A stretch of DNA of 64,000 bases from a virus. The translations under genes and the position numbers were made by a program. The stretch lies in IMG/VR virus record IMGVR_UViG_3300044710_000137, positions 20,546-84,545 of that record. One strand, written 5' to 3'. Below are positions 7,893 through 62,181 of the stretch, piece after piece. The notes beneath the pieces are model-generated. The model was not told the DNA's origin and ran no database searches. It was given only the letters and a program-made list of their open reading frames with translations. The stretch's first letter is position 1. Each line of letters starts with the position of its first letter.

Positions 7893-8314
7893 ATGCTATC
7901 AAACTTATCTTGGACCTTCACAAGCACGACGGCGCCGATCCAGTATCAAAGCTCCCCGGCCTCTGGGAACGCAAACTCGACGACCGGTGGACGTTCTGGG
8001 TAAACGGCCACATGGAACCGCTACCCGTTCCGCACGATGCGGGCGCCCCGGAAATGCGCGTGCTGCCCGGTGAATGCTACGTCGAATACAACGGCTGGCC
8101 GGCTGCCACATTTTCGATAATCTGCCCCGGAGATGGTATTTTCGCCGCTGGCTCAGCCGCCAACTACCACACGTTCTGTGCGGCACTCGAAGCAGCCCTA
8201 TTGTCACCCATCTGTACCAGCGGAACTCCCCCGACAGCCAAGCCGGGCTCAGCTCCGGGTCTAACTGGCGATTTCCAACGCCGCAAAGCTCACAAGCAAA
8301 AAGGAGTGGATTGA
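7889..8314 (+). CDS. hypothetical protein
   Basis: MNAIKLIL start with AGGAAGG upstream. Confidence 0.6.
   Translation: MNAIKLILDLHKHDGADPVSKLPGLWERKLDDRWTFWVNGHMEPLPVPHDAGAPEMRVLPGECYVEYNGWPAATFSIICPGDGIFAAGSAANYHTFCAALEAALLSPICTSGTPPTAKPGSAPGLTGDFQRRKAHKQKGVD
8216..8295 (+). repeat. family C element
   Basis: ACCAGCGGAA...CGACA...CAGCTCC...GCGATT...AAGCTCACAA. Confidence 0.85.
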
Positions 8315-8315
8315 A

Positions 8316-8675
8316 ATGCTAAACCTCAGCACCCTTGTATATCTAATAACAGGTAGTATCCAACCCAGAAGGAAGAAGCGTAAGAAATTCCGTTCCCACC
8401 CAAACCGCTCAAAACCATACTTGGCCTGGATACGGACGCTCGATTGCCTCGTCCCCTTCTGCGAGTTCAAACCGATTCAAGCAGCCCACACTGGATCGGA
8501 CGGAGGAACCGGTATTAAGGCATCCGACTGGAGCGCGGTCCCATTGTGCCTGATTCATCACGCCCTCTATCACCAGATTGGCAAGCGGGCATTCGCAAAA
8601 CGGTATCGCCTCAATTTCCAGGCTATCGTAGAACGGCTGAACGCGATCTTTAAGAGTGGGGAGCGTGCGGCATGA
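8316..8675 (+). CDS. DUF968-like HNH-type nuclease
   Basis: YLAWIRTLDC...C...AAH...KASD...VPLC..HH..YH. Confidence 0.8.
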   Translation: MLNLSTLVYLITGSIQPRRKKRKKFRSHPNRSKPYLAWIRTLDCLVPFCEFKPIQAAHTGSDGGTGIKASDWSAVPLCLIHHALYHQIGKRAFAKRYRLNFQAIVERLNAIFKSGERAA

Positions 8676-9400
8676 AAACGCGTAAACCGTGCCCCGGATG
8701 CGGACAAGTCATCCATGGCAGGGAGGCTGAGAAGGTTTGCGTCGATTGCCGCCGCGCGATCGATAGTTGGAACAAACATATCGCGACCATTAAGGCTGCG
8801 CCGGATCAGTGCATGGTCTTACTGAAAGGCGTCTATCACTGGTATCCGATGTTTTACTTCGGCGGACCGCGATGCAGCATTTTTGAACTGGACGAGATGC
8901 GCGGGGAACTTGCCGAGTTTTTCGAGGAGTTAGCGACGCGGCTATGCTCCCATATTGTGGAGTGGCAGGACGCGAGAGGCGAGAAACCTGAAGAACTATT
9001 TCCGGTGCCCGACGTGCGGAAGCCGCTAAAAACCGGCCAAAACTACGCGGAGCCAGTCGGATATCCAGCCACGCATGGGGAAAGTAGCTACCACGATAAA
9101 ACGGGCCTGATCGACCGCCGCAACCTGGAGCTACTGCGCGGACTCTGGGACAGGACCGCCCGCTTTACGGATCTCGCCTACATCGCAGGATTGACCGACG
9201 GGCGCAATCTATTGCTGCAACTTTCAAGCGGTGCGCTGTCCGTGGACGATCTCCAGGAACACGACGTCAAGGTGGCGAGAGACCGCCAGAACGCCGCGTA
9301 CCTGCACCGGAAGCTCAAGGGGACGCCCAAGCGCACTCGGCAGAAACCAGCGGCCAACACGGATGTGGTGGACGCGGCATCGACATCAAAAGATTTGTAA
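8672..9400 (+). CDS. hypothetical protein with an N-terminal zinc finger
   Basis: CPGC...CVDC; coupled start. Confidence 0.65.
   Translation: MKTRKPCPGCGQVIHGREAEKVCVDCRRAIDSWNKHIATIKAAPDQCMVLLKGVYHWYPMFYFGGPRCSIFELDEMRGELAEFFEELATRLCSHIVEWQDARGEKPEELFPVPDVRKPLKTGQNYAEPVGYPATHGESSYHDKTGLIDRRNLELLRGLWDRTARFTDLAYIAGLTDGRNLLLQLSSGALSVDDLQEHDVKVARDRQNAAYLHRKLKGTPKRTRQKPAANTDVVDAASTSKDL
9346..9384 (+). repeat. family A hairpin element
   Basis: ACCAGC...GCGGCATCGAC. Confidence 0.9.
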
Positions 9401-9504
9401 ATGACCACCACCCACCCCACCCTCTTAGACTGGATCTGCTGGAAGCTCTTTATCTTCTTCCATCGCTCCCGTTGGAGCTGGCTCTGGCATAGACGGAGAA
9501 TTCG

Positions 9505-9801
9505 ATGAAGAAGGTCCGCATCGTTCAATGTCTCTGCCCTAAACGTCACTGCATGGCCGCCATGGCGTATCAGACGGAGGATGGCCAGGAGAACCCCGAG
9601 ATCCGAAAATTACTCCAGAAAAAATTTGAGCAGTTGATCGAGGCGCACCTTTGCAACCCTTGGTGCGGGTTGTGTAAAGCCCCCTATTCCACCTTCTTCT
9701 ACGAGGACATGCCCACCATCTTCGCCACCATGGAGGAGGCTCGCGTTTTTCATGGGAATGGTATTTGGGTCTCTCGGTACACTGGTAGTTATATGGAGTA
9801 G
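9505..9801 (+). CDS. hypothetical protein
   Basis: GGAG RBS; CLCP..HC and NPWCGLC motifs. Confidence 0.6.
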   Translation: MKKVRIVQCLCPKRHCMAAMAYQTEDGQENPEIRKLLQKKFEQLIEAHLCNPWCGLCKAPYSTFFYEDMPTIFATMEEARVFHGNGIWVSRYTGSYME

Positions 9802-9804
9802 AAC

Positions 9805-10158
9805 GTGAAAGAAGAAAAATCAGTTGTCGATGCCGCCGCGGTCGCCTCCACGCCCGCGGCTGGTAAAGGCGAACGCTGGTCGGGATCTGTGCAGGTTTGT
9901 CTTTTTCGCACGCATGACGATTCCGGCATCCGTATTGAGGTGTGGCTGAAAACCGAGGGCAACTGGAAGTTATCCTCGGACACCGACCACACCTGGCAGT
10001 CCCTGCATTGCCTGATCCACGAAGAACAACGCGAGGCGGGGCAATCCTCTGCCGCATCGCCGACGGCCTATTGGAAGCTGAACGCCATGGAACCAGCGGC
10101 CAACACGGATGTGGTGGACGCGGCACCAACACCTAAACATTTGAAAGATGAACCATGA
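9805..10158 (+). CDS. hypothetical protein bracketed by inverted A elements
   Basis: KSVVDAA at the N-terminus and PAANTDVVDAA at the C-terminus both derive from A elements. Confidence 0.55.
   Translation: MKEEKSVVDAAAVASTPAAGKGERWSGSVQVCLFRTHDDSGIRIEVWLKTEGNWKLSSDTDHTWQSLHCLIHEEQREAGQSSAASPTAYWKLNAMEPAANTDVVDAAPTPKHLKDEP
9826..9864 (-). repeat. family A hairpin element
   Basis: GTCGATGCCGC...GCTGGT. Confidence 0.9.
10092..10130 (+). repeat. family A hairpin element
   Basis: stem identical to the 9346 copy. Confidence 0.9.
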
Positions 10159-10384
10159 ACATCCGTACAGGCGCTGGTATTGCCGCGCTATTCGAGGAGC
10201 CAGAGATTGAGCACAAATGCAAGCGCTGCGGTGCCGCATTTTTCTCCCGATGTCGTAGTGTTAAACGATGCCCACCATGCCGAGCTGCGGTGAAGGACGA
10301 GCGCCAGAAGCGGCGGGATGCGGCGCGGCCAAAGCCCTAAGCCCAGATCGGCAATCCAAGCGATCCCTGGCACCCAAAGGTTCT

Positions 10385-10424: not shown

Positions 10425-10465
10425 ATCAAATTTGACGTTTACGGCATCCTCCAATCCCGTAAGAA

Positions 10466-10792
10466 TCACCCACCCGCGGTCATGGTCTTCACTTGGCGCT
10501 TGGCAGCCTTGGCCCGTTTCTGCGCGGCCGCGCGGAGCTTCTCTTTGTGCGCTTCGGTTAGCGGGGCCCTCACACGGGTTACGTGGACCGTCGGCACGGA
10601 AGCTGTCCCGCCCAGCACCTGGTGATCGACTGCATTCCATGTGTTTGCGATCCCCACGATAATCGCACCGGCGAGCATAGCCCGCTGGCTGTCGGATAAC
10701 TGGCGCTGGCAGGTCAAGTAGATTGCCTCGGTGGTTGGATCCAAGCGAGGGGTATTGATTGATAGAGCTGGCTTCTTTGGTTTGTTTGGCAC
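10466..10792 (-). CDS. small basic putative nucleic-acid-binding protein
   Basis: C-terminal LTEAHKEKLRAAAQKRAKAAK. Confidence 0.5.
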   Translation of the reverse strand: MPNKPKKPALSINTPRLDPTTEAIYLTCQRQLSDSQRAMLAGAIIVGIANTWNAVDHQVLGGTASVPTVHVTRVRAPLTEAHKEKLRAAAQKRAKAAKRQVKTMTAGG

Positions 10793-10835
10793 TTGATTCT
10801 CCCTGAGGGACAGGGTAACGCAAAATCATTATAGG

Positions 10836-11440: not shown

Positions 11441-11520
11441 ACCAGCGGAATCCGCCCGACACAAAACCGGTCTCCAGTTCCCCGATGGCATCGCGCGATT
11501 TCCATAGATCGAAGCCAGAA
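11441..11520 (+). repeat. family C element
   Basis: ACCAGCGGAA...CAGTTCCCCGATGG...CGAAGCCAGAA. Confidence 0.85.
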
Positions 11521-11802
11521 AAGGCTCAATGCTGTTTTGGGTTACTTTTTACAGGTATGTTTGGTGGAACAGAATTGACCCCTGGTGCGTTCGCAAGCTT
11601 CATCCAGGCTTCGTAGTCCCAGTGAAGGATAGCGAGCTGTTCTAGGCTAATATGGCCGTGCTGGTAAAGATATTCCAGGAAGGTCATCGAGATCCATACT
11701 TCCTCTCCCACCGCTCACAGGATTTACGGTTCTCAGCTCGCATGCGTTCCTGTTCTCTCAACCGGCGCCAGTGGATTAGGTTATAGAGGCGTCTTAACCA
11801 GG

Positions 11803-12060
11803 TCAATTGAACCCCTCGATCCATTTTCTAACCTCATTCGGGTCATTGTGACCACCATAGAACATTGGGGCGATCATCTTGCCAGGGTGATCTTTCAACT
11901 CTGGATGTTTGCTCAGGTCTGAGAGCATCGAGGTCATCGCATTTACCGGATCGCCGGGAAGATACTCAAGGGCTCGGCGCTTGGCCCACTCCAGGTGTTC
12001 AGCGCGATTGCGAATGGTTGATTGTGGAAGACCGGCATAGTCTTCAGCATCATCGTTCAT
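11803..12060 (-). CDS. conserved phage hypothetical protein
   Basis: R.EHLEWAK.RALEYL...SMLSDL.KH...WIEGFN. Confidence 0.65.
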   Translation of the reverse strand: MNDDAEDYAGLPQSTIRNRAEHLEWAKRRALEYLPGDPVNAMTSMLSDLSKHPELKDHPGKMIAPMFYGGHNDPNEVRKWIEGFN

Positions 12061-12362
12061 TTCAGTCCACCTTCAGAAGTATTCGGTGTTGATGCCGCTT
12101 CCGTCGCCGCGGCGCCGGAAGCTGGTAGAACCAGTTCGGGTTCGCCTCCGACGCCCCTGAGTGCTTCGAGTACCGCTGCAGCTATGCCTATAGCGGGGGA
12201 ACGGTCGGTATTGTTGATGGCCGGCTTGAATTCCGCCTGGACATCCACACCGCCCCCTTCTACGTCGCTGATGGTGAGGGTGAAGGTGATGCGTCGACCA
12301 GCCGCAGGCACGGCGGTGACTGCGGCGGCATCAACAACTGATTTGCCTTTTAATTTTCGCAT
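12057..12362 (-). CDS. hypothetical protein bracketed by inverted A elements
   Basis: coupled at both ends. Confidence 0.55.
   Translation of the reverse strand: MRKLKGKSVVDAAAVTAVPAAGRRITFTLTISDVEGGGVDVQAEFKPAINNTDRSPAIGIAAAVLEALRGVGGEPELVLPASGAAATEAASTPNTSEGGLK
12088..12126 (-). repeat. family A hairpin element
   Basis: GTTGATGCCGC...GCTGGT. Confidence 0.9.
12297..12335 (+). repeat. family A hairpin element
   Basis: ACCAGC...GCGGCATCAAC. Confidence 0.9.
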
Positions 12363-12685
12363 TATACTATTGCCTCTAATAATGGCCGTGCTTTATCCTT
12401 CCGGATAATCCTGGTTTTCCGCGCCTTCCGCTTCCACACCCGGTAGTCGTGCTTCTTATGACACGGCTCGCACCAGGCCGCCAGGTTGTCGTCGGTATCA
12501 TGCCCCGGTGTTCGATCGATATGCGCGATCGATAAACGTAAACCCTCCCGCTTGCACTTCTCGCACCTGCCGCCGGCGCGCGCCAGTATCCGCGGGCGGA
12601 TGACATACCGCCAGTGATAGCCGTAGAATTTTCGGAGTTCCGGGCGCACGGGCACGGCTATCTCAATCTCCTCGACGCGGCCCAA
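12362..12685 (-). CDS. HNH endonuclease
   Basis: RAGGRCEKC...AHID....DNL..WC..CH..HD. Confidence 0.85.
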   Translation of the reverse strand: MGRVEEIEIAVPVRPELRKFYGYHWRYVIRPRILARAGGRCEKCKREGLRLSIAHIDRTPGHDTDDNLAAWCEPCHKKHDYRVWKRKARKTRIIRKDKARPLLEAIV

Positions 12686-13409
12686 TCGCTGAACTCCTTA
12701 TCCGCGACGGCGGCCGCCAAGCGTGCACCTTCGGGATCCGCCTCCAGACAGCGCAGCCATGCTTGGTGGTTAATGTTGGCCTGAACGCGGTTTGGCGGCT
12801 TGCGCGGACGCGGCGCGTGGTCCGGTTGATTTACGACTATACGGCGGATCCTCAGTATTTCGCGGACATCTTCCAGGCGGGCGACCCCGTACCGGATGAC
12901 CTCCTCGGCTAGGCCGAGCTGGCGGGGTGTCCAGCCATGCCGCAACAGTATCGCGGCACTCACCGATAGTGGGTGGGCGCCCATTTCACCTACCCCTCGC
13001 CTTAGCGTTGAGGATGTGCCGCGAAAGCTCGGTACATTTGCGGCAGTTCACGCGCTTCTGGGTGGGCGATAGGGCGGCGAGCTTCCGGATGAGGTGGTGG
13101 CCGCATTCCAGGCTAAGGTCCACGCGCGGGCCGCCGATGGAGTTTTGGGGCGGGCTGAGGAAGAGTATTCGCCTTAGGGTCACGGCTTTACTCTCCTGGT
13201 GTAGGTTTTGGCGAGGCGTGGGGGAATTACTTTACGGCGAGGTGGATGGCCATCGAGGATATCCTGGGCTTCTATTTCCTTGGTGAGCTCGTCCAGGATC
13301 TTGGCGCCCTCGCGGACTTCTTTATCGTGGGCCCGCATCATTCTTTTGGTGGTTAGGCTTTCTAACTGATTAGCCATAATTACCCTCCAAGTTCAAAATC
13401 AAAATCAGT

Positions 13410-13446
13410 GTTTGATGCCGCGCCGGTCAGCCTGCCCGGCGCTGGT
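13410..13446 (-). repeat. family A hairpin element
   Basis: GTTTGATGCCGC...GCTGGT. Confidence 0.9.
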
Positions 13447-15319: not shown

Positions 15320-15472
15320 CGGAGCACGTCTCTTAGCGCGATGTGCTCGCCCTGTTCCCTGCCCTGCTGCTTAGCGAGGATCTCTCCGTCTTCAAACTGA
15401 ATAGCTCTACGGATCTCAGAAGATGATCTCCTCATTTCTTAAATTTCTCCTGGAGTGCCTGAGGGATTTGGT

Positions 15473-15511: not shown

Positions 15512-15663
15512 TCCTGCCATCGGACAGTGGGCGGATTAGTTCTGATGTCCAGCACCCACCAGTAACCGCAGGTTTGGCACGTAGCCCGCAGCGACATACC
15601 GTACCTAAGTACTGGACCGCAACCATTTGGACAGTTGCGGGCATCCCAGACGATATCGCTTTT

Positions 15664-15702
15664 ACCAGCCGGGGGCGCGGCGGCGACACCGGCGGCATCA
15701 AC
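15664..15702 (+). repeat. family A hairpin element
   Basis: ACCAGC...GCGGCATCAAC. Confidence 0.9.
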
Positions 15703-15719
15703 AACTGATTTTTCTTGGC

Positions 15720-16112
15720 TCATGATCCTCCTCCTGCAGCCATACTTCGTTCCCCTTTCCACTTCAGCCTTAGAGCTTGGGCTGCTTTCTCTACTTCCAC
15801 TGCACTTGGTCTCAATCCACGCTCTGACGTCTTCACTACCGCTGCATTGAGAACCGCCGGCAATCTCATGATTTGAGCTGCTGCCACCAGGTTGTCCAAC
15901 TCCGATACGAACGTCGCTCCGAACTTCCCCGCTATTGATCTCTGTTGGTCACTGGCGTGTCTCCAAGCGGTTAGCCATACTCCAGGCCCATATTTTCGCT
16001 GGCTATAAACCCGGGCGTCCCGCAGCTCGCAATCCTCGATCCGGGCGATGGGGCGCTGGCTCTCGGTTTCGATGGCGATCCAGCAGAGTTTCTTGTGTTT
16101 GTGGTGCATCAA
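15720..16112 (-). CDS. hypothetical protein
   Basis: coupled to neighbours. Confidence 0.5.
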   Translation of the reverse strand: MMHHKHKKLCWIAIETESQRPIARIEDCELRDARVYSQRKYGPGVWLTAWRHASDQQRSIAGKFGATFVSELDNLVAAAQIMRLPAVLNAAVVKTSERGLRPSAVEVEKAAQALRLKWKGERSMAAGGGS

Positions 16113-17500: not shown

Positions 17501-17588
17501 GTCCGACAGTCTAGCAGAGGGCTAAGGACATAGGGTGTCCGACTGTCGAAAAATAGCTTGATGGGATATATGCAGAATTGCATTTTAT

Positions 17589-46741: not shown

Positions 46742-46743
46742 AG

Positions 46744-51398: not shown

Positions 51399-51402
51399 AG
51401 GG

Positions 51403-52057: not shown

Positions 52058-52085
52058 GCCCAAGACTTCTTCAAAGGATTATTAA

Positions 52086-52739: not shown

Positions 52740-53144
52740 GCGCTCAGCGGCGGCGGCTGTCCAGAAGCTTCCCGACTTCGGCGCGGATGGCCGTGCCGAT
52801 CAGCTCCTGGAGATCCACATCCTGAAGGGCCTTGCGCGCGTGATCCGTAACCTCGTTTTGGAGCGCGTTAGCCATAATCAGGTTCACGGTTTTCGCTATC
52901 TCCCCCGCGTAGTCGAAGTGCTGGACCGCGTACGATACTTCGGCCTCGATCCTGGCGTGGATCGACGGCATTTCCCTCTCGATGGCCCGCGCAACGGAGA
53001 CTGCCATAGCGCCCAAGCCGCCGTCGTTGACCTCAAAGTGCTTCGCTTGGGATGCCACTGGTTCGGGATTCAGGAAATGCCCCGGCTCCATCTCGGGGCC
53101 CAGAACCACAAGCCCCTCCTTCTCGGCGTTCTTGCCAAATAGTT

Positions 53145-53879
53145 TCACGCCGCATCCTTGAGCGTCTTCCTGCACGCCGCGCAGAGCACCTGCACCCGCA
53201 TGGGCTTGCCGCGCCAGCTTTTGAGAATCTTGGGCTTCGCCTCTCCACCGCAGGAGCGGCAGACGCTCAGGTCAATCGAGGCTAAGGCGGCCAGTCTGGC
53301 GCGTTCGTCGGTGAAGGGCAGCGGCCCCCAGTCCGGGCCCAGCGCCGTGGATTCCTCGGCCGTGTTCACCGTTCGCTCCTTGATGCCGGGGTCGAGTTGG
53401 TGATAGCGGGCGGCGGGGTATTCGCTTCCCGGCTCCGATGGCTGGGTCTGTGGCTTGAACTGTACGGCGGCCACTTCCCGAATAGAAACCGTTGCGGTCT
53501 GGCCGTAACCTTGGCTTGCGGCGAACACGCCATCGTCAATTTCCGCTAGATGCTCGGGAAGCTTCAGCGCCACCTGGCGGATTTCCTCTTCGAGCGCGAT
53601 GCACACGTCCCGATATTCGGACTGCAGAAATTCGGTCATCGCGCGGGCCATGTCTTCCATGTCGCCCTTGGTTCCGTCGAGGGTGACTTCCAACTCTGGT
53701 TCGAGTACCAGTGTGTATGGCCACGTTCCCATGTCGCGCCGGTATTGCTCTGCGGTGTAGCCGTCTTTTCCGATTTGCTTCCTTGGATCGAGACTGCCTT
53801 CGGCGTATTTCAGGACGAATTTGCGCGAGCGAAGAACCTCCAGGCGGGAAGCGAGTTTCTGCAGTCTCTCTGTGTCCAT
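53145..53879 (-). CDS. hypothetical protein with one EYP...LGPDWGPLPF repeat and a zinc ribbon
   Basis: shares a domain with 52086-52739. Confidence 0.6.
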   Translation of the reverse strand: MDTERLQKLASRLEVLRSRKFVLKYAEGSLDPRKQIGKDGYTAEQYRRDMGTWPYTLVLEPELEVTLDGTKGDMEDMARAMTEFLQSEYRDVCIALEEEIRQVALKLPEHLAEIDDGVFAASQGYGQTATVSIREVAAVQFKPQTQPSEPGSEYPAARYHQLDPGIKERTVNTAEESTALGPDWGPLPFTDERARLAALASIDLSVCRSCGGEAKPKILKSWRGKPMRVQVLCAACRKTLKDAA

Positions 53880-53921
53880 TTCTCTTCAAGTATAGACTCT
53901 TTGGAGCCCATAGAGTATAAG

Positions 53922-54010
53922 TTGGTGAGCTTCGCAAGCTGAAGCCGCCAGCCTCTCACTGGTAAAACGGGTCAGCGCCGCACTGCCGCGCAACTCCTCC
54001 CGCATGCCCC
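53922..54010 (+). repeat. family B element
   Basis: TTGGTGAGCTTCG...CCGCATGCCC. Confidence 0.85.
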
Positions 54011-54043
54011 ACTGCCGCCGTTATTGACATCCTCCGAACGTCT

Positions 54044-54124
54044 ACCAGCGGAAGCCGCACGACAAGACAGCGGTCTCCAGTTCCCCGATGGCATCGCGCG
54101 ATTGACAGCGCATCGAAGCCACAA
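54044..54124 (+). repeat. family C element
   Basis: ACCAGCGGAA...CGAAGCCACAA. Confidence 0.88.
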
Positions 54125-54143
54125 CTCCTAAAAGACTTTTTCC

Positions 54144-54911
54144 ATGCCTGCAACAACCCCACAAGCCGTAATTACTAATGCTTTGACTTTACTCCCCGGT
54201 ATTTTATGGCCAGGTAGTTCTCCTTCTACCATCATGTCTGCCGATGGATTAGTAAAGCTGAACGACATGATCGACTCCTGGTCAACCGAACGGCTGATGA
54301 TCTACGGCTATTCGACGCAATCCTATGCCATGGTCTCGGGGACAAACGCCTACACCTTTGGAACGGGAGGAACCTTCACCCCCCGGCCCATCGCCATCGT
54401 AGCGGCCAACATCATCACCGACGCCACCCTGAAACTGCGCTACGCCATGCGGCTGATCACCATCGACGAGTGGAACGCCATCCGCGACCGCCAGGCCGGA
54501 TCGCTTCTGCCCAAGGTTCTGTACAACGACGGCCAATATCCCTTGTCCACGCTCTCGATGTGGCCAACTCCGAATTCTTCAACCAGCCTATTGGAACTTT
54601 ACACCTGGCAGCAGATCGCAGACTTCGCGGCGCTCAATTCCACCTTCGACCTCCCCATCGGGTACGAACGGGCCATTACGTACAACCTGGCGCTCGATCT
54701 CGCTGGGGAATATCGCGTCTCCGTGCCAGCCGAAGTCTTGAAGGTGGCCATCGAGTCCAAGGCCGACCTGAAGGCCCTCAACGCCCCCCCGACGCACATT
54801 CCCGGCATGGCCCAGGAACAGATGGCGCAAGCGCAGGTAGGCGAAGCCTCCCAGCCGAACGCCGGTGCTCCACCGCCGCCTCCAGGAAGCATGCAGGGCA
54901 GCGTCACGTAA
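54144..54911 (+). CDS. head-tail adaptor (P22 gp4-like), paralogue 1
   Basis: I..AL...G......S....DGL..LN.M.DSW; P..LY.D; P.GYE.A..YNLA..LA.EY. Confidence 0.75.
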   Translation: MPATTPQAVITNALTLLPGILWPGSSPSTIMSADGLVKLNDMIDSWSTERLMIYGYSTQSYAMVSGTNAYTFGTGGTFTPRPIAIVAANIITDATLKLRYAMRLITIDEWNAIRDRQAGSLLPKVLYNDGQYPLSTLSMWPTPNSSTSLLELYTWQQIADFAALNSTFDLPIGYERAITYNLALDLAGEYRVSVPAEVLKVAIESKADLKALNAPPTHIPGMAQEQMAQAQVGEASQPNAGAPPPPPGSMQGSVT

Positions 54912-55004
54912 CGGGCCGGGGGCTGGGGCCCGGGGTCAGGGACTGGGGTTTACTTTTTACCATTCCTAGCCAACTAGGAATCCATCCCCACCGCCGATGT
55001 GACC

Positions 55005-55085
55005 ACCAGCGGAATCGTCACGACAGACAACCGCTCTCCAGCTCCCCGATGACAACGCGCGACTGACAGCGCATCGAAGCCACAA
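55005..55085 (+). repeat. family C element
   Basis: ACCAGCGGAA...CGAAGCCACAA. Confidence 0.88.
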
Positions 55086-55103
55086 CTCCTAAAAGACTTC
55101 ACC

Positions 55104-55853
55104 ATGGCGACAACTCCACAAGCTGTAATCACAAATGCCCTCGTAGTATTAGGCGTCACCTTCCCAGGTCAAACACCCAGTTCTTCGATGCTAAATGATG
55201 CCTTCACCCGCTTGAACAACATGCTCTTGTCCTGGTCCGTAGACAGGGGCATCATCTACGGCATTCTGAAACAGGATTTTCCTTTAACCACCACGGTAAA
55301 CAGCTACACTATCGGAGCCACGGGAACCTTCGCCGGCACGCGCCCCAACTCCATCGTCGCCGCTCAAATCCTGGTAGGCCCCTTGGGACTGCGCTCGAAA
55401 CTGCGTTTGATCACCACCGAGGAATGGGACGCCATCGAGGACCAGGGCGCCACCTCGACAGTTCCCGAACTCCTGTACGACGACTACGAATACAATAATT
55501 CCACGTTGTACTTCTGGCCCACCCCCACGTTCGGCTCGGGATCGTACTACGTCGAAATCCAGACCTGGCAGGAACTCGAAACCTTTTCCACCCTGGCCGA
55601 CGACTTCGACATGCCTCCCGGTTACGAAGAGGCCGTGACGTACAACCTCGCCCAGGTGCTCTCCATGGTCTATGGACGAGCCATGTCCCAGGAAGCCATG
55701 GGAATCGCGCAAATGTCGCTGAACAACCTGAAAACGGTCAACGCGCCGCCCACGCACATCTCGGGTATGGCGGAGGAAGCCGTGGCCCGCGGGCAGGTAG
55801 CGCAGGGCGCCGGGCCGATGCTCGGAGACGCGGTAATGCCGATTAAACGGTAA
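55104..55853 (+). CDS. head-tail adaptor (P22 gp4-like), paralogue 2
   Basis: same motifs as paralogue 1. Confidence 0.75.
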   Translation: MATTPQAVITNALVVLGVTFPGQTPSSSMLNDAFTRLNNMLLSWSVDRGIIYGILKQDFPLTTTVNSYTIGATGTFAGTRPNSIVAAQILVGPLGLRSKLRLITTEEWDAIEDQGATSTVPELLYDDYEYNNSTLYFWPTPTFGSGSYYVEIQTWQELETFSTLADDFDMPPGYEEAVTYNLAQVLSMVYGRAMSQEAMGIAQMSLNNLKTVNAPPTHISGMAEEAVARGQVAQGAGPMLGDAVMPIKR

Positions 55854-56631
55854 ACCTGCAAAAATAGGCTTACGATGAAACCCACGGGTTTGGGTGGGCG
55901 TGTTCAGCGCCAGTCCGCTGGTGTCGCATAGCGGGAGCGGTCACCCGTCTATCCCGGGTCGAAATTCCGGGGCCAGTCCAGCACGCGTGCAAGACCTCAC
56001 GTCAGCGGCCCGGTGAACGCGACTCCGGGCCGCGTAATTTAGCAGTCGCACGCGAAGCGCTGTCATCCTTCATGGATAATCCCCCGCGCGCCGCATCGCA
56101 TACAGATAGCCGCCGTGGTAACGAATGCTGGAAAGATGATGGCGAATTGGTCGCTGCCGCACTTGCATTTCATCGGCGATTCGCTACCATCCCAATCCCC
56201 GCCATGATCGTGAACGAAGGGATAGGCGTCGTCTATCTGACTCGGGAAGGAATCGCGGCGCCGCTCGGCTAGTGCCACCAGCTCGGGATCTTTGGAATAG
56301 AGGCCGGTCAAAATTCCCCTAATGGGCGAGCCTATAGCTCCGCTCGAAAACTGCCTTCAGTTCCAAATATTTGTAGCCGTCGTCCCTCACTACATAGTAA
56401 TCGCCGACCCTGGGCGTCATTCGCGCCAAGAGGGGAGCGCCCACTAGGACCTCACTCCCATCGCTCAACCGCAACGGGAGGCAGGTAACACCCCTGCCGA
56501 ACGCCACTAGGTCGCCTGGATCGATGTCGGCGATAACAAAGGCCTCTACCTCGACGGGATTGGCGATGCACTTCACGCCTCAACTCTACCATTCCTGATC
56601 GGCTGAATCCATCCCCACCACCGATGTGACC

Positions 56632-56710
56632 ACCAGCGGAATTCTCACGACACCCAAGAACGGCTCAGCTCCGAGAGTCACGCGCGATTGAAGCGCCGCA
56701 AAGCTCACAA
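56632..56710 (+). repeat. family C element
   Basis: ACCAGCGGAA...AAGCTCACAA. Confidence 0.88.
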
Positions 56711-56727
56711 GCCCTAAAAGTCTTCAG

Positions 56728-57522
56728 ATGTCAACTAATACTCTTACTCCTCCTTCAACTCAACCAGTATCTCTCCCTACTGTAAGGGTATCCGACATCA
56801 TCTACACAGGCTATCGTTTAGCAGGTATTTTAGCCGACCCAGGCGTAACCCCCTCCCCGGAAGAAACCACAGACGGATTCAACACCTTAAACGCCATGTT
56901 GGACGACTGGAACTCCCAGCGCTTCATGATCTTCACCATCATCCGCTATTTGTTCAGCTTCGTCTCAAACCAGCAGTCCTATCAGATTGGACCCGGCGCC
57001 GCGGATTGGAACTTTCCCAGGCCCCCAAGAATTGAAGGCGTTTCCGTGGTACTCGAGAACGATCCCACATTGCCATTGGAACAGCCCATCGCCATGCTGT
57101 CCTGGCAGAACTTCCAGAGGATCAGCGTCAAAACCATCCTTTCACCCATCCCATACGCCTGCTATTACGACCAGCAAAACCCCATCGGCAACTTGTGGTT
57201 CTATCCTGTTCCGGAAGGCCCGCTCAACTACGTCGCGCTTTATGTGTGGCAGACGATAGCCGCCATCCAGACCGTCAACGATAAAATCATCTTCCCGCCG
57301 GCGTACCTCCGGTGCATCGAATACAACCTGGCCGTTGAACTCGCCGCGCGCTTCCCACTTCGACAGAAGATGTCGCCTATCACGGTGAAGATAGCCGAGC
57401 AGTCCATGCGGAACGTAAAGAGCTTGAACATGCCGACGCTCGATATGACGATTGATCGGGCAGCGTTGCCGGGAAGACAAGGAATTTATGACTGGCTCAG
57501 TGACTCGCTCAGGTGGCCGTAA
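56728..57522 (+). CDS. head-tail adaptor (P22 gp4-like), paralogue 3
   Basis: GIL...G.TP..EE..DG...LN.MLD.W; FPPAY...I.YNLA.ELA. Confidence 0.75.
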   Translation: MSTNTLTPPSTQPVSLPTVRVSDIIYTGYRLAGILADPGVTPSPEETTDGFNTLNAMLDDWNSQRFMIFTIIRYLFSFVSNQQSYQIGPGAADWNFPRPPRIEGVSVVLENDPTLPLEQPIAMLSWQNFQRISVKTILSPIPYACYYDQQNPIGNLWFYPVPEGPLNYVALYVWQTIAAIQTVNDKIIFPPAYLRCIEYNLAVELAARFPLRQKMSPITVKIAEQSMRNVKSLNMPTLDMTIDRAALPGRQGIYDWLSDSLRWP

Positions 57523-57619
57523 ATAAAGCCTGTTCAACGCTTTACATTGCGTGGACAGTTAGAGCATAATCAAAGAGTGAGGCCGCGCTGTTATCAGCAA
57601 CGCAGCCCCGCAGATCAAG

Positions 57620-57636
57620 ACCTCTGGAGGGTCTCG
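57620..57636 (+). promoter_or_regulatory. RBS-sequestering hairpin upstream of the endonuclease
   Basis: AGACCTC-TG-GAGGGTCT traps GGAGG. Confidence 0.6.
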
Positions 57637-57638
57637 AA

Positions 57639-58469
57639 ATGCGACCCAATTCTACCATCACCACCAAGCGCTGCCGCGGCTGCAACGAAACGAAGGACAT
57701 CCAAAACTTTTACTGGCGAGAGGACCGCCAAACACATTTCACGCTTTGCATTGTCTGCTGGAACAAACATGCCGAGGATCGCCGCAGGGCTAGCCGCGAA
57801 AAGGCTCTCACCTACCCGGGTGGCGAGAAGCGCTGCTGGCGCTGCAAACAGTCCAAGCCCTACGCGGACTTTCCGCGTTGCTCCACGAATAGTTCCGGAT
57901 TCAGCAAGGCGTGCCGTCCTTGCAACGCTATATTACACAGTCTTTGGTACGAGAAAAATAGGCTAGCGCAGCCGGAGCCGCCGGCAGAAAAACGCTGCCG
58001 CTGTTGCAAAGAGAACAAAGCGCGCGTTGAGTTTAGTATCGACCGCGCTTCCTTGGATGGCCTGAAACAATGGTGCCGCGAATGCTCCGCCCGCGCTTAT
58101 CAGGCGCGCAAGCGCCCACTCCTTTATTCCAGGCCGGCCAATATTCGGCATGATTACGGACTCTCGACCGAGGGATACGACGCCATCATTCAGCGCCAGA
58201 ATAACCGCTGCGCAATCTGTGGCAAAACCCCTCCCAGGCTCGTAGTGGACCACGATCACAAGACAGATGCGATCCGGGGGATGCTCTGCTCGCCCTGCAA
58301 CCAATTTCTTGCTGTAGTCGAAATCGCCGGAATGGTCGAAAGCGCCCAGCGCTATCTCATTCTGAGTAAAATCACCGGCGACTTGCGGCCCATCGTCCAA
58401 CCGAACGGCTTGCCGCACCCGCGCCGGGACGCGTACCTGAAGAAGATCAAGATGGGCAAGCCGGCCTAA
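57639..58469 (+). CDS. free-standing endonuclease VII-family endonuclease with N-terminal zinc fingers
   Basis: three KRC..C...K....F repeats; YGL...Y......Q..RCAIC...VDHDH....RG.LC..CN. Confidence 0.9.
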   Translation: MRPNSTITTKRCRGCNETKDIQNFYWREDRQTHFTLCIVCWNKHAEDRRRASREKALTYPGGEKRCWRCKQSKPYADFPRCSTNSSGFSKACRPCNAILHSLWYEKNRLAQPEPPAEKRCRCCKENKARVEFSIDRASLDGLKQWCRECSARAYQARKRPLLYSRPANIRHDYGLSTEGYDAIIQRQNNRCAICGKTPPRLVVDHDHKTDAIRGMLCSPCNQFLAVVEIAGMVESAQRYLILSKITGDLRPIVQPNGLPHPRRDAYLKKIKMGKPA

Positions 58470-58478
58470 CAGTTCGTT

Positions 58479-58790
58479 ATGCGTCTGCTTCTTTTGCTTT
58501 TGCTCATACCCCTGGCAGCCCAAGACGTGCGCGTGATCCACCTCTCGCCGGCGGATGCAAAGATCCTCGCTCAGATCGGCAACGCCAAATTGCAAGCCGA
58601 CGAAAACTGGCGCCAGGCCGAGAAATACGTCCGTTGGAAGTACGCGGCCGAGCCGGGCATCGCACAAGCTGGTGACGCGCAGGTAGACGTCAAGAATCCC
58701 AGGAACGGCTGGGAATACGGCGTTCAGTTCTCGCAGGACTTCAGTGTCATCGTTCCGAAGCCGAAGCCTTGCGAAGACGATGAGCATTAA
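58479..58790 (+). CDS. small secreted protein
   Basis: MRLLLLLLLIPLAA-Q. Confidence 0.6.
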   Translation: MRLLLLLLLIPLAAQDVRVIHLSPADAKILAQIGNAKLQADENWRQAEKYVRWKYAAEPGIAQAGDAQVDVKNPRNGWEYGVQFSQDFSVIVPKPKPCEDDEH

Positions 58791-58807
58791 GGGGCGCTGC
58801 TATCCAT

Positions 58808-59305
58808 TCAATCGGACCGTTTGCCGGTGCGCGGGGTGGCATCCGGGTCTTTGGATGCGTCGTACACGGAAAGAATAGCCGCCGCAAGCGCGTTCAGGCC
58901 GCGCTGGGTATCCACATGATAGGACCCAACCCCGAAGCCTTTGTACCACTCGCGCGGTGATGGACAGCCACAGTGACCGGCCACGCGCACCTCGCGCCCT
59001 AATTCAGCATGCAGTTTCTCCGCTACTTCGACGGGCAATCCAGGGCCCTCGGCGCACCAGTAGTACCAAGCACGCTTAAAGCTCCACATCGATAAACTCC
59101 CGAATGCCAGCGAGGGAACCTCGCCTTGAATAACGTTCCAAAGCATCGCTACTTCAATTCCAGCTTCTCGCAGCTCAGCCTCGGCTGTCGCGGTCACTTC
59201 CGCAATCGTGGCAGGGTCGAACGGCTGCGGCCGCGCCAGATTCGGCAAGTTGTTTTCGCCAACACATGACGGCGAGACGCCCGCAGAACTGATGGTCAAG
59301 CTCAT
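58808..59305 (-). CDS. conserved hypothetical protein (antisense insert)
   Basis: W.F.RAWYYW; RVAGHCGCPSP.EW; YHVDTQ.GL. Confidence 0.65.
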   Translation of the reverse strand: MSLTISSAGVSPSCVGENNLPNLARPQPFDPATIAEVTATAEAELREAGIEVAMLWNVIQGEVPSLAFGSLSMWSFKRAWYYWCAEGPGLPVEVAEKLHAELGREVRVAGHCGCPSPREWYKGFGVGSYHVDTQRGLNALAAAILSVYDASKDPDATPRTGKRSD

Positions 59306-59329
59306 ACCCCCAGTCTAGCTAAATCTGAA

Positions 59330-59369
59330 ACCAGCGATCCGGCGCGGAAGCGACGGGCGCGGCATCAAC
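59330..59369 (+). repeat. family A hairpin element
   Basis: near-identical to the 3387 copy. Confidence 0.9.
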
Positions 59370-59394
59370 ACCTCATTTTCCTTTTGCCCCTTCA

Positions 59395-62181
59395 ATGTCA
59401 ATTCAGCAAGACAGTCAGCTCCTTCAGTTCAAATCCATAAGTCAATCCAAGACAGGACTTTTTCAATTCATTGGCCCCAGCTATCAGTCCTGGAGCCCCG
59501 ATCAGGACGATCAAGAACTCCTGAACATGTACGTGGAAATGGATGAGGCGGGAACCGGTAAAAACGTAAAAGCCCTTTACGGAACACCAGGCATTCAAAA
59601 TTTCTGCTTCCTTCCTCCCGGCCCTACCAGAGGAATATACGCAGGAGAAAACCGCCTCTTCGTGGTATCCGGTCCTAACCTCTACGAAGTATTCGCAGAT
59701 ACCAGTTTCACGAACCTCGGAGCAATCGCTAACGACGGAAACCCCGTCTACATGTCCGCCAATGGAACGGGAACCCAGCTTTGCATCGCAGCCGGATATT
59801 TAGCCGCAACCACAAACTACACCGACATCGCCATCAACAGCGGTAACGACCTCGAAATCAGCAGCGCCCTCAACCCCTTCACGGCACTGTTGAACGCCGG
59901 ACAAACCCTGACTATCTCGGGCGGAACGGGATTCACCCCAGGCAATTACACCGTCGAATACGTGGACGGCAACGGCAACGCCTTCCTGAATGCGTCTCCC
60001 GGCGCGGCTTCATCCACTGGAGGAACCGGCAGCCTGGTTTACGGGCCCGGCGGCTATTTCTATTGCGATCCCGGAACCGGACCCGTGGCGCAGCGCTTCT
60101 CGGTCGCCTATACGGACCTGGCCATCAGCGCGGGATCCAGTTCAGTCGTTTCGAGCGCCGCCCAGCCCTTCGCGGCGGATACCGACGACGGGTACACCCT
60201 CGTCATCAACGGAGGCGTCGGCTTCACCCCCGGCACTTTCACTATTGTTTCGGTGGACGGATCCGGCAACGCCACCTTGAGCGGATCCGCCGGCACGGAA
60301 GGATCCATCGCAGGAACGGGAATCGAGTACCTGAGCTACGTCCCAGCGGTTCAACTGGCCTATCTGGATACGTTTTTTGTGGCCCAGGCGGGATACAATT
60401 CGCGTCTTTTCTACCTCTCCGCGTCCGACGACGGCACTATGTGGGACGCCCTGCAGGTGGCCCAGAAGGAGTCGTATCCAGACAATATCACCGCGATCCT
60501 GAGCGACCACGAAGAATTGTGGCTCTTTGGATCCCAACAGTCCATCGAGGCTTGGTCGAACGTGGGCGGCGCCGTCTTCCCGTTCGCGCGCAACGATTCG
60601 GCCGAAATGCACTACGGCTGCGAAGCCCCCTTCTCGCCCATGCGGTTCATGTTGGGTTTTGCTTGGTTAGCCAAGGACCAGGTGCGCGGAGGCCGCATGG
60701 CGTTCTACGCCCAAGGATTCGTGCCCGTCCGGATCTCGAACCATGCGGTCGAATCCATCTGGAACACTTACCCCTACGTGGCGGATTGCATCGCCTACAG
60801 CTACGAGGAAAACGGCCACCCATTCTACGTTTTGAACTTCGCCAGCGCCAACGCCACGTGGGTATATGACGGCCTTACCCAGATGTGGCACCAGCGCGCC
60901 TGGTACAACGGCGTGGGATCCGGAGGCGTCCAGGAAGTTTCCATCAACACTGCGGGGTCCGGATACGTGCAGGTCTCGGGTGCCCTTACCGGGTTTGCCC
61001 TCGTTTCGCCGGGTTTTGGCTATGCGGCGGCCGCCGGCGCTCTGCTTTACGGCGATCCTCCATACGTGCCCTACGTCACTATCGACGTTGCGGGAACGGG
61101 ATATCAGGCCAACGAAGTCGTCGCCCTCGCGGGAGGAACCGGGGGAACCATCCTCATCCAAACCGTCAACGGGAGCGGCGTCCCTACGGCCATTGTCGTG
61201 TGGAATCCCGGCAGCGGCTATTCCGCGACCACGGGCCACGCTACCTCCGGAGGAAGCGGTACCGGGCTAACCGTCAGTATTGGCGCGGTATCGACTGGAG
61301 CCAGCGTTGCCACGGTCGTATCCGCGGTGGGTTCCGGCGCCACAATACAGGTCGATACGGTAGGCCCTTATGGAGCGGTTACGGCCGCGCACATCTTAGC
61401 CGCGGGATCCGGGTATGGCATCGCCTCGGGCGTTCCGACAGTTGGCGGGTATGGCCTCGGCTTCTCGATCGCCATCACCGCTACGGCGAATACTTTCCCC
61501 CAAGTAACTATCAGCCAGGTGGGATCCGGCGACAATTGCGTGCTGCAGATCAACTCCGTCAACTCGGCGGGTGGGGTGGTTTCATTGTCGATCATCAGCC
61601 CGGGAAGCGTCTACACGGTCGCTAACGGGGTTGCTACGACGGGCGGAGCGCCAGGAACGGGGCTCACGGTCAATATCGGAGCCGTTTCGTCTACGGGAGC
61701 GGGAACCAATGGGCGGCAAAGGCAATCCTTTCATGGATACGTGAACCTTGGAAATGGCGATACCCACTTCGTTTCTGACTGGGAGACAGGTCAGGTTTTT
61801 ACGCAATCCGTGAATTATTACACCGACGCCGGCGTGCAGATCCAGCGCATCAGAATTGCCCCGCATATTGCCGAGGAAGACACGCTTCAGTTCTTTCACC
61901 GCTTCAGGCTGGATCTCGAAACCGGGAACGCGGCGATGAACAACATTACCCTGGACTGGTCGAGCGATGGTGGACATACTTTTCATGGATACAATTTAGC
62001 CCCAGCGTTAGGGTCTCCTGGCGTAAACCAATTTCAATTTTCAGTGGACTGGCTACCTTTAGGATCGGATGGAACCAGAACATTCAAAGTTAAGATTACC
62101 GACCCAGTGAAGATTGCCATTGTAAATGCTTACTTGGATGTTACGGCTGGGACAGTGCCTGCCGGAACACCTGGACTTTAG
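59395..62181 (+). CDS. tail hub / DNA stabilisation protein (P22 gp10-like) with inserted repeat domains
   Basis: N.Y.E, L..TPG, E..PD.I, LWLFG....E.W.N.G, R.S.HA.E, TWVYD..T..WH.R, L.WS.DGG.T. Confidence 0.85.
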   Translation: MSIQQDSQLLQFKSISQSKTGLFQFIGPSYQSWSPDQDDQELLNMYVEMDEAGTGKNVKALYGTPGIQNFCFLPPGPTRGIYAGENRLFVVSGPNLYEVFADTSFTNLGAIANDGNPVYMSANGTGTQLCIAAGYLAATTNYTDIAINSGNDLEISSALNPFTALLNAGQTLTISGGTGFTPGNYTVEYVDGNGNAFLNASPGAASSTGGTGSLVYGPGGYFYCDPGTGPVAQRFSVAYTDLAISAGSSSVVSSAAQPFAADTDDGYTLVINGGVGFTPGTFTIVSVDGSGNATLSGSAGTEGSIAGTGIEYLSYVPAVQLAYLDTFFVAQAGYNSRLFYLSASDDGTMWDALQVAQKESYPDNITAILSDHEELWLFGSQQSIEAWSNVGGAVFPFARNDSAEMHYGCEAPFSPMRFMLGFAWLAKDQVRGGRMAFYAQGFVPVRISNHAVESIWNTYPYVADCIAYSYEENGHPFYVLNFASANATWVYDGLTQMWHQRAWYNGVGSGGVQEVSINTAGSGYVQVSGALTGFALVSPGFGYAAAAGALLYGDPPYVPYVTIDVAGTGYQANEVVALAGGTGGTILIQTVNGSGVPTAIVVWNPGSGYSATTGHATSGGSGTGLTVSIGAVSTGASVATVVSAVGSGATIQVDTVGPYGAVTAAHILAAGSGYGIASGVPTVGGYGLGFSIAITATANTFPQVTISQVGSGDNCVLQINSVNSAGGVVSLSIISPGSVYTVANGVATTGGAPGTGLTVNIGAVSSTGAGTNGRQRQSFHGYVNLGNGDTHFVSDWETGQVFTQSVNYYTDAGVQIQRIRIAPHIAEEDTLQFFHRFRLDLETGNAAMNNITLDWSSDGGHTFHGYNLAPALGSPGVNQFQFSVDWLPLGSDGTRTFKVKITDPVKIAIVNAYLDVTAGTVPAGTPGL

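Follow-up and report, generated by a model that had tools for sequence, protein, structure and literature searches.

The DNA analysed here raises the question of why, in a phage genome otherwise dense in CG, the sequence on one side of dispersed repeats of three families (the A, B and C elements) should be AT-rich and poor in CG, even where it runs through genes. The window, i.e. the whole stretch of 64,000 nt that was analysed, corresponds to bases 20546-84545 of a viral contig of 84,545 bp (IMG/VR record IMGVR_UViG_3300044710_000137), which is 97% complete according to CheckV. The GC content of the genome is 0.59 and its CpG observed to expected ratio (o/e) is 1.14; the window contains 9.9 CG per 100 nt. 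Genes could be recognized for a P22-type portal, a P22-type coat protein, a head-closure (gp10-like) protein and a 3397-aa DarB-like protein, as well as for a tyrosine integrase, a helix-turn-helix (HTH) protein and a PD-(D/E)XK nuclease. A preliminary description of the sequence had pointed out the AT-rich, CG-depleted 'halo' on one side of the elements, and had proposed for it either the mutational footprint of a site-anchored enzyme or a selected unwinding or loading zone.

A one-sided tract specific to the elements

The elements were collected over the whole genome by iterative nhmmer searches, which gave 28 family A hairpins and 26 merged B/C blocks (from 14 B and 17 C matches, which overlap), that is 54 elements, 41 of them within the window; the weakest match, C(+) at anchor 33459, had a score of 20.2. 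Family A is a hairpin with constant flanks, and 7 of its 12 predicted pairs show compensatory changes (i.e. covary). Families B and C, some 90 nt long, are related to each other and have conserved sequence in common; no supported common RNA fold was found for them, the consensus structure being nil or weak. That B and C could be coding repeats was considered and rejected, the copies differing by single-base indels and displaying, in alignments inspected by eye, no three-base conservation pattern. The anchor of an element is the last base of its CAAC end (A) or of its GAAGCTCAC(C)AA end (B/C), seven anchors being set by hand, and the halo was counted over positions +1 to +100 beyond the CAAC (A) or GAAGCTCACCAA (B/C) end. 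Genes were modelled with a simple codon-usage caller, with some starts corrected by hand, and are approximate. After manual sorting of the 54 contexts, 31 elements were found ahead of a co-directional start codon situated at +7 to +136 (sense class), 12 face the 3' end of a convergent gene, five (all A) lie within the part of an opposite-strand gene that codes for its N-terminus, the gene starting in the halo, five are in frame inside a giant gene, in alternating orientation (two of them antisense to it), and one is unclassified. A start codon is present within 36 halos (31 co-directional, five opposite) and absent from 18.

Averaged over the 54 elements, GC content was 0.37 at +1 to +20, 0.46-0.48 as far as +80 and 0.52-0.56 as far as +240; on the upstream side, outside elements, it was 0.56-0.63, i.e. 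near 0.60, so that the metaplot is asymmetric about the elements. The number of CpG per 20 nt ranged from 0.26 to 0.81 over +1 to +80, versus a genome mean of 1.97. By class, the first 100 nt contained 4.0 CpG for sense elements (n = 31), 3.9 for convergent ones (n = 12), 3.8 for those in the N-terminus of an opposite gene (n = 5) and 2.2 for those inside the giant gene (n = 5). The control values per 100 nt were 10.7 for element-free gene ends (n = 39), 9.4-9.6 for element-free starts (n = 32) and 10.5 for non-element windows (n = 605), 2% of which had four CpG or fewer; this low level was reached by 36 of the 54 halos and by one of 54 upstream windows taken at -250 to -151. A test that needs no gene calls, in which CpG-free runs were compared with a first-order Markov simulation, gave 36 runs of at least 60 nt (simulated mean, 9.65), of which 25 overlap the +1 to +200 zone of an element, and 15 of 80 nt or longer, for which the simulation gave a mean of 0.95; 14 of these are in that zone. 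The halo is thus a real feature, confined to one side of the elements and specific to them; its strength is uneven from one element to the next.

The stretches singled out in the preliminary description were recounted: 51261-51400, 59362-59498, 56699-56792, 8284-8378 and 11512-11587 indeed have no CG, and 43052-43175 has a single one, at 43117. All are AT-rich, with a GC content of 0.39-0.45. The dominance of A- or T-ending codons at the end of the gp10-like gene was likewise found, the GC content of third codon positions (GC3) being 0.36 over the last 66 codons and 0.71 in the body of the gene. The attachment of the halo to one side of the elements and its passage through coding sequence at synonymous sites also agree with the class controls. 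As to its length, given as about 80-140 nt, the tract is there but was understated: at four-fold degenerate sites the deficit in G persists at +101 to +200. No motif emerged from k-mer enrichment in +21 to +120, where only weak CTTC/GAAG-type words were found.

One explanation is that the elements merely stand ahead of first genes, whose AT-rich 5' untranslated region and low-structure codons would be exaggerated in a GC-rich genome. Halos do resemble low-structure translation starts in being A-rich, G-poor and weakly folded across the start codon, in the 36 that have one; several of these starts lack a Shine-Dalgarno (SD) sequence, and CpG-free, G-poor leaders are also seen at the starts 40730 and 42089, which belong to highly expressed structural genes that have no A, B or C element. 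The usual low-structure effect spans about the first 10-15 codons, whereas the halo depresses GC3 as far as codons 40-60, is anchored on the element and is found also at gene ends and within genes. Among the 26 genes that begin close to an element (60 nt at most), GC3 was.43,.48,.56,.60,.64 and.70 over codons 1-10, 11-20, 21-30, 31-40, 41-60 and 61-100, respectively. Over the same bins it was.52,.72,.80,.54,.72 and.71 for starts more than 60 nt away (n = 5) and.67,.74,.70,.76,.72 and.74 for element-free starts (n = 37). What matters is how far the sequence lies from the element, and not its position relative to the start codon; with starts more than 60 nt away, the shift is limited to codons 1-10. 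Element-free starts are, then, nearly unaffected in both GC3 and CpG, the effect is not general to gene starts, the 18 halos without a start are as strongly depleted as the others (3.9 and 2.2 CpG) and, as seen below, convergent genes lose C in their own sense, not G. The preliminary description was right to hold translation-initiation bias insufficient; we regard it as an improbable origin, and as a complete explanation it is already contradicted by the convergent and in-gene classes.

Two conserved genes illustrate how the halo overrides local codon usage. The first, next to the coat gene, codes for a 347-aa protein (42089-43132), and a C(-) element begins 33 nt past its stop codon. The C-terminus of this protein is conserved in seven homologues. 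The GC3 of the last 40 codons is.55, as compared with.88 in two relatives without an adjacent element (L004 and L013) and.70 in a third (L012); two short contigs used in this comparison came from a metagenome scan with the alignment of the protein. The second is the gp10-like gene, whose C-terminus is also conserved: in its last 66 codons the frequency of C at third positions (C3) falls to.18 from.48 in the body, alongside the drop in GC3 given above. In the gp10-like orthologue of L004, where an A(-) lies past the stop, C3 is.36 versus.49, and G3 is unchanged. The conserved C-termini have been recoded, and therefore the halo is not imported DNA: the idea of foreign low-GC sequence carried along by the element was rejected for both genes. 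As to the 347-aa protein itself, it has a signal-peptide-like N-terminus, no Pfam entry in the precomputed column and six homologues at 50-75% identity, all of them metagenomic.

Strand polarity and base composition of the tract

The halo is strand-specific: G is lost from the sense strand of the element, whichever way the overlapped gene runs. In gene bodies, the composition of four-fold degenerate sites (n = 10318) is A.12, C.43, G.34 and T.11. In gene sense, it becomes A.30, C.32, G.09 and T.29 in halos with a co-directional gene (n = 415), and A.28, C.19, G.24 and T.29 in those with an opposite gene (n = 232). Expressed in element sense, where.34 or.43 would be expected, G at these sites is.11 in the sense class,.18 in the convergent class, and.02 and.17 in the giant gene for elements in the same and in the opposite orientation. 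In every class the element-sense drop is of 58-94% for G and of 23-42% for C, and the frequencies of A and T at third positions rise equally, from.12 and.11 to about.30 and.29.

The same polarity is seen in raw composition. Over +11 to +100, C exceeds G in all five N-terminal-antisense halos, in all five giant-gene halos and in 9 of the 12 convergent ones; for the gene-antisense halos taken together the score is 14 of 17, where the gene-sense baseline predicts the reverse. When the 80-nt windows of either strand are ranked by G content, 26 of the 45 poorest fall in halos, and for 23 of these the G-poor strand is that of the element (three are opposed). Element-sense halos contain G at.16-.21 and C at about.21-.29, with C above G in every class; their best 80-nt windows have 6-10 G and 19-37 C. 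The RNA of the element-sense strand is also predicted to fold less, at -17.6 kcal per 100 nt versus -21.6 for the reverse complement (paired p = 8e-6) and -28.4 for random windows.

One-sided AT-rich regions next to protein-binding repeats are the classic layout of replication origins, some of which lie inside genes. The halo could accordingly be a duplex feature, either an unwinding element for hairpin or cruciform extrusion or for open complex formation, or a nucleation site for an H-NS-type silencer, and the 80-150 bp AT-rich tracts do adjoin the covarying hairpin of family A. In such a duplex flank G and C should fall alike, whereas the depletion is strand-specific and oriented by the element; the loss of G follows element orientation, and therefore duplex unwinding is disfavoured. 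Furthermore, B and C, for which no hairpin is supported, cast the same halo, and no phasing of AA/TT at 10-11 bp was found in halos. We consider a duplex role most unlikely. Hence the unwinding or loading zone of the preliminary description holds in part: a one-strand loading zone, on RNA or single-stranded DNA (ssDNA), is the best reading, and duplex unwinding is not.

The mutational alternative would have 100-200 nt next to the element exposed or resynthesized (by nick and resection, nick translation or R-loop formation), with GC-to-AT damage accumulating at tolerated sites. A one-sided halo that decays with distance, hits synonymous sites in any gene orientation and is asymmetric between strands, as expected of damage to an exposed strand, has these features in common with it. 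So does the dinucleotide pattern at first sight: CpG o/e is.75 in halos versus 1.17, with TpG at 1.05 versus.94 and CpA at 1.07 versus 1.00. The GpC control falls too (.98 versus 1.12), and the CpG deficit with its small TpG and CpA gains arises because codons with G or C in third position are lost (NCG codons and C3|G1 junctions). If the antisense strand were exposed, mostly G-to-A changes would be expected, and if the sense strand were (R-loop or transcription bubble), C should be lost at least as much as G; simple deamination would moreover raise A alone or T alone. None of this fits the equal rise of A and T or the much heavier loss of G just described. The first 13 nt carry a conserved motif (see below), and so are constrained, not decaying. 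Lastly, a cytosine-5 methyltransferase (PF00145) gave no match in the phage, while the control genomes matched; such an enzyme might still come from the host. The footprint of cytosine methylation or deamination favoured by one arm of the preliminary description is thus disfavoured, and we give a mutational origin in general a small chance. The equal rise of A and T means that selection on composition fits better than a single type of lesion; we interpret the halo as maintained by selection for the base composition of a single strand, the one that reads element then halo from 5' to 3', and probably not as a mutational scar. On that strand G would be avoided strongly and C mildly, with A and T interchangeable.

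The pattern recurs in a related phage contig (L003/L004), the only one with true elements by nhmmer among those returned by pattern scans of IMG/VR (three C and six A loci). There, eight halos have 143 G versus 240 C out of 800 nt, and a mean of 4.9 CpG versus 11.1. No near-identical phage was found by megablast of 24.6 kb against 50,697 phage records, and protein searches found only distant P22-like podoviruses, at less than 60% identity. Two soil DNA runs, and no RNA run, are listed for the phage, which is present at about 15-20x in a soil sample; the contigs of these runs are near-identical to it and break at the repeats, and therefore provide no usable substitution spectrum. A scan of genome_contigs with the A pattern returned at least 120 loci, with no true element among the matches listed (nhmmer E ≤ 1e-4). 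These matches (L015-L134) are on at least 120 bacterial contigs, mostly of Burkholderiales and Pseudomonas, and have an identical span of 44 nt, which is probably one conserved coding sequence.

Candidate roles of the tract

Immediately past the elements, a motif is common to all three families: it has C at position +3 and A at position +6, the latter in 83% of copies, and is rich in T from +10 to +13. It contains a -10-like TAnnnT-like motif, which is weak (35% of copies have T at +5 and 48% have it at +10). In the sense class an SD sequence or a bare ATG follows 17-50 nt past the element, an arrangement resembling an entry point for transcription and translation. Four B copies (anchors 23198, 54124, 55085 and 56711) have, by eye, TTGACA or TTGAAG 21 nt upstream. 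The search for a T7-type RNA polymerase (PF00940) was uninformative, with no match in the phage or in any of 14 control genomes.

The phage also carries the gene of a 189-aa NusG paralogue of the UpxY family (20751-21320, + strand; PF02357, E 7.5e-15; NF033644, 104.4 bits for a cut-off of 100). In 5.8 billion proteins it has four relatives only, at about 59% identity, one of them on a 53-kb contig; scans of IMG/VR proteins gave no relative of it, and a single 31% fragment for the portal. UpxY is described as recruited to paused RNA polymerase at sites of about 40 bp that combine a pause hairpin with a GCG-N-AGC / YGCGNAGCR motif on the non-template strand and are close to the first start codon (PMC11685472). 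In the phage, the family A hairpin is followed by GCGGCA(T/G)CAAC, and B and C end in CGAAGCTCACCAA with a CGAAGC core. Compared with the GCG-N-AGC / GCGGTAGC type, the A flank and the B/C core look like ops-type sites, a resemblance and not a demonstration.

The explanation that we favour, tentatively and at somewhat less than even chances, is that the halo is a selected G-poor, unstructured, rut-like tract of an RNA made in the direction of the element. The elements would be transcription entry or loading sites, where RNA polymerase starts or pauses and where it may take up the NusG paralogue, becoming termination-resistant. The next 100-200 nt of RNA would be kept G-free, with more C than G, staying open. 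In the 36 halos with a start codon, the open region would serve for ribosome loading; in the others (antisense-facing and in-gene copies), it would be a rut-like tract through which Rho ends a transcript that is untranslated or not modified by the antiterminator. Transcription in element direction, the parts of Rho and the ribosome and the recruitment of the paralogue at the elements are what we infer from composition and from published systems. In descriptions of these, a rut site is a 'C>G bubble', unstructured, rich in C and poor in G, for which windows of 70 nt are scored (PMC9160355), and RfaH is reported to block Rho-dependent polarity and to recruit ribosomes (PMC12360218).

Several observations weigh against this explanation. 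The low folding of the halo is wholly compositional (z = -0.05 against dinucleotide shuffles), and the tract is G-poor yet not C-rich, its C content of.26-.29 being below the.31 of the genome, which makes the likeness to rut sites a partial one. Four elements have no halo, with 8-9 CpG in +1 to +100 (anchors -19345, 4443, 10424 and 19505). A sigma-70-type -35 box was not found: a consensus scan of 43000-62500 gave six promoter-like sites, none at the -10-like motif of an element, versus 6.9 in shuffles. The exact YGCGNAGC is present in only 3 of 26 B/C blocks, with T as the next base in all three instead of the published purine, and B and C have no supported RNA structure. At one copy the -10-like promoter and the ops-like core compete, because a start at the -10-like motif would lie downstream of the core, which would not be transcribed and could have no ops action. 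Element-direction RNA is an assumption at the 12 convergent elements and the two that are antisense in the giant gene. Elements that bracket protein domains within one open reading frame (ORF) are odd for transcription signals, and the alternation, bracketing and changes of gene order described below are as expected of recombination junctions. Finally, gene models and element classes rest on a crude caller and on manual sorting.

Among known systems, rut sites resemble the halos in consisting of some 70-100 nt of RNA that is unstructured and has C > G, at gene starts, within genes and on antisense RNA (PMC9160355). The best halos have 7.5-12% G and 24-44% C in 80 nt; unlike rut sites, halos are not C-rich, and they are fixed beside repeats about 54 times in 84.5 kb, their use by Rho being a prediction. 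The ops and opsX sites of RfaH and UpxY are also oriented sites of about 40 bp with a pause hairpin and a GCG..AGC motif in a leader, the paralogue being encoded nearby; they occur once per operon and a few times per genome, whereas here there are about 54, in both orientations and also inside ORFs, and the literature consulted reports neither phage-encoded cases nor compositional halos (PMC11685472). A place in the transcribed leader would suit the 31 sense elements, which precede a co-directional start, but not the other 23. The mRNA leader of T4 gene 32 reportedly has a folded nucleation site and, after it, an AU-rich tract free of structure to which protein binds cooperatively, at a single locus; the layout is similar (a folded element, with an open tract on its 3' side only, over the start), which is a likeness of logic only, and no gp32-like gene was found in the phage, no search aimed at one having been made. 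AT-rich unwinding regions are said to lie beside origin repeats in lambda (ori in gene O) and T4 (oriF in uvsY), once or twice per genome. They too are one-sided and tolerated within coding sequence, but act at the duplex level, whereas the halos are strand-asymmetric and in about 54 copies. Short repeats are also said to precede many genes at mosaic junctions in the promoter/stem-loop (PeSL) cassettes of T4 and the start-associated sequences of cluster K mycobacteriophages; we know of no report, for either, of a strand-specific halo overriding the codon usage of neighbouring genes.

The junction-like behaviour of the elements is the strength of another explanation, in which they are recombination or mobility junctions and the G-poor strand is an ssDNA landing zone for a recombinase, annealing protein, helicase or primase, with shuffling of cassettes. 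In 38 of 53 pairs of neighbours the two elements have opposite orientations (p = 0.002), and facing pairs, with halos pointing inward, bracket single genes and two domains of the giant ORF, where A elements are read in frame as Ala/Pro/Gly linkers. Gene order differs at elements between the phage and L004, an A replacing a B or a C at orthologous junctions. Genes for a PD-(D/E)XK exonuclease and a tyrosine recombinase are present in the phage, and strand polarity suits ssDNA as well as RNA. The Y1/RAYT transposase (PF01797), on the other hand, gave no match in the phage (control genomes matched), and neither target duplications nor excision variants were seen; mobility is conjectural, a single related contig being available. 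Resection from 5' to 3' would leave a C-poor strand, which folds more, and not a G-poor one, and the fixed -10-like motif and the SD sequences or starts 17-50 nt past most elements are left unexplained. We consider this explanation unlikely, without dismissing it.

Returning to the rut-like, open-RNA reading, its widest form would be a genome-wide control of elongation belonging to the phage itself: some 54 oriented sites for a UpxY-type paralogue, of three sequence families with an ops-like core in common, each with a Rho-sensitive, G-free 'runway' written in synonymous sites, copies directed inward from both ends of genes and protein domains gating sense expression, quenching antisense transcripts and serving as in-frame, shuffleable borders of modules. 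In this full form we hold it to be doubtful. What is new here is the strand polarity. As a feature, the halo is a variation on rut-like or open-leader tracts and on sites of the ops type, from which it stands apart by its many copies, its strand logic and the way it overrides codon usage in conserved genes.

The tract element by element, and what it may mean

The individual halos are given below along the window, with the anchor, the window positions of +1 to +100 and the number of CpG, the sign being the orientation of the element. At the left end, C(+) 266 (267-366, 4 CpG) sends its halo into the 3' end of a convergent gene, B(-) 659 (559-658, 5 CpG) has a gene start at +11 and C(-) 2454 (2354-2453, 4 CpG) has one at +13/+19. 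A(+) 3425 (3426-3525, 4 CpG) comes next, followed by A(+) 4443 (4444-4543, 9 CpG), without halo, and A(+) 4920 (4921-5020, 1 CpG), with a CpG-free run at 4912-5014. In the halo of A(-) 6687 (6587-6686, 1 CpG; run 6607-6695) a gene begins on the opposite strand and reads on through the element. A(+) 7333 (7334-7433, 5 CpG) and A(-) 7396 (7296-7395, 7 CpG) face each other 62 nt apart, which raises both counts. B(+) 8296 (8297-8396, 2 CpG) overlaps the already mentioned 8284-8378; then come A(+) 9384 (9385-9484, 2 CpG), A(-) 9826 (9726-9825, 4 CpG), A(+) 10130 (10131-10230, 7 CpG), whose halo is weak, A(+) 10424 (10425-10524, 8 CpG), which has none, and C(-) 10836 (10736-10835, 2 CpG). No gene was called in the halo of B(+) 11520 (11521-11620, 3 CpG), which matches the noted 11512-11587. 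The halo is weak at A(-) 12088 (11988-12087, 6 CpG) and short at A(+) 12335 (12336-12435, 6 CpG), where GC is 0.2-0.4 in the first 60 nt and an opposite-strand gene starts. Those of A(-) 13411 (13311-13410, 4 CpG), A(-) 15473 (15373-15472, 3 CpG) and A(+) 15702 (15703-15802, 1 CpG) call for no comment; A(-) 17589 (17489-17588, 3 CpG) has a gene start at +89.

Small genes accompany several of these elements. Those at 6654-6730, 7363-7440, 9805-9870, 12290-12362 (- strand) and 15660-15762 (- strand) have a Lys-rich, AT-rich start and then run through an antisense A element, which gives them a common N-terminal peptide of the type K-S-V-V-D-A-A...P-A-G. Further small genes come to their end within a sense A element.

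In the central part, A(+) 19505 (19506-19605, 8 CpG), which heads the operon holding the NusG paralogue, has no halo, and B(+) 23198 (23199-23298, 7 CpG; gene start +136) has a weak one. Halos are present at A(-) 29413 (29313-29412, 1 CpG) and A(+) 29835 (29836-29935, 5 CpG), and weak ones at C(-) 32707 (32607-32706, 6 CpG; just past the stop of a + strand gene), C(+) 33459 (33460-33559, 6 CpG) and C(-) 38339 (38239-38338, 7 CpG). B(+) 39455 (39456-39555, 4 CpG) has a gene start at +112. The halo of C(-) 43165 (43065-43164, 1 CpG) is the one that runs through the conserved C-terminus of the 347-aa gene and corresponds to the noted 43052-43175; A(+) 43623 (43624-43723, 4 CpG) has an 80-nt window with 7 G and 35 C, and C(-) 46049 (45949-46048, 3 CpG) follows.

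The right part of the window contains the most extreme cases. The halo of C(-) 51403 (51303-51402, 0 CpG) passes through the end of a + strand gene; it includes most of the noted 51261-51400 and lies within the longest CpG-free run of the genome, 51260-51413. The whole of the 135-aa gene at 50991-51398 has a GC3 of 0.39, versus about 0.7 elsewhere; either this halo covers most of it or it is a recent acquisition of low GC. B(+) 52058 (52059-52158, 3 CpG) and C(-) 53922 (53822-53921, 5 CpG) come before three B(+) elements with an ATG close by: 54124 (54125-54224, 2 CpG), with the ATG at +20 and no SD sequence, 55085 (55086-55185, 3 CpG), with the ATG at +19, and 56711 (56712-56811, 1 CpG), with the ATG at +17. 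The last one overlaps the noted 56699-56792 and contains the G-poorest 80-nt window of the genome (6 G, 28 C). The genes that follow these three elements (54144-54911, 55104-55853 and 56728-57522) are paralogous, all with the ATG at +17 to +20 and without an SD sequence; they are 31-64% identical to their homologues in L004, where the orthologues are preceded by an A element instead. The halo of A(+) 59369 (59370-59469, 0 CpG; the noted 59362-59498) covers the start of the gp10-like gene, and that of C(-) 62184 (62084-62183, 3 CpG) runs through its conserved C-terminus.

Outside the window, the 3397-aa DarB-like protein (G000/L001 8902-19095) has five in-frame A elements in alternating orientation, at about aa 350-860. 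Facing pairs bracket a domain of about 75 aa and a 2H-phosphoesterase / RNA-ligase-like domain, both with AT-rich ends, and the stretch between back-to-back copies is a Pro/Thr/Ala-rich linker.

Another repeat of the genome is made of heptad arrays at gene junctions, (GGTGGCT)n at 20013-20040, 40635-40662, 41986-42013 and 48434-48461 (+ strand) and the complement (CCAGCCA)n at 27489-27516, 34361-34374 and 38455-38468. They contain the word ACCAGC, with which the A and B elements likewise open. That they might be a fourth kind of halo-casting element was rejected as a general rule: a CpG-poor side was seen for 2 of 10 arrays, and only those before the coat gene and the 347-aa gene have such a tract. 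At gathering thresholds, Rfam gave nothing at the elements and two tRNA-type matches only, at 2934-3048 (- strand), which spans 115 nt for a model of 71 positions, and at 20166-20238 (+ strand); ARAGORN calls only the latter, with an undetermined two-base anticodon. ORFs were also called at 23969-24697 and 31370-32158.

A signal that is written on one strand and overrides codon usage over 100-200 nt in conserved structural genes, at some 54 places, is rare and can be measured cleanly. The halo is a read-out, obtained from the letters alone, of the strand and direction on which these repeats act; should the link with the NusG paralogue prove false, it would still constrain any model of the A, B and C elements. 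If the link is true, the phage would bring along an RfaH/UpxY-type antiterminator of its own and dozens of sites at which to recruit it, which would be a new way for a phage to escape or exploit Rho, and a natural test bed for the interplay of rut-like tracts, ribosome loading and NusG paralogues.

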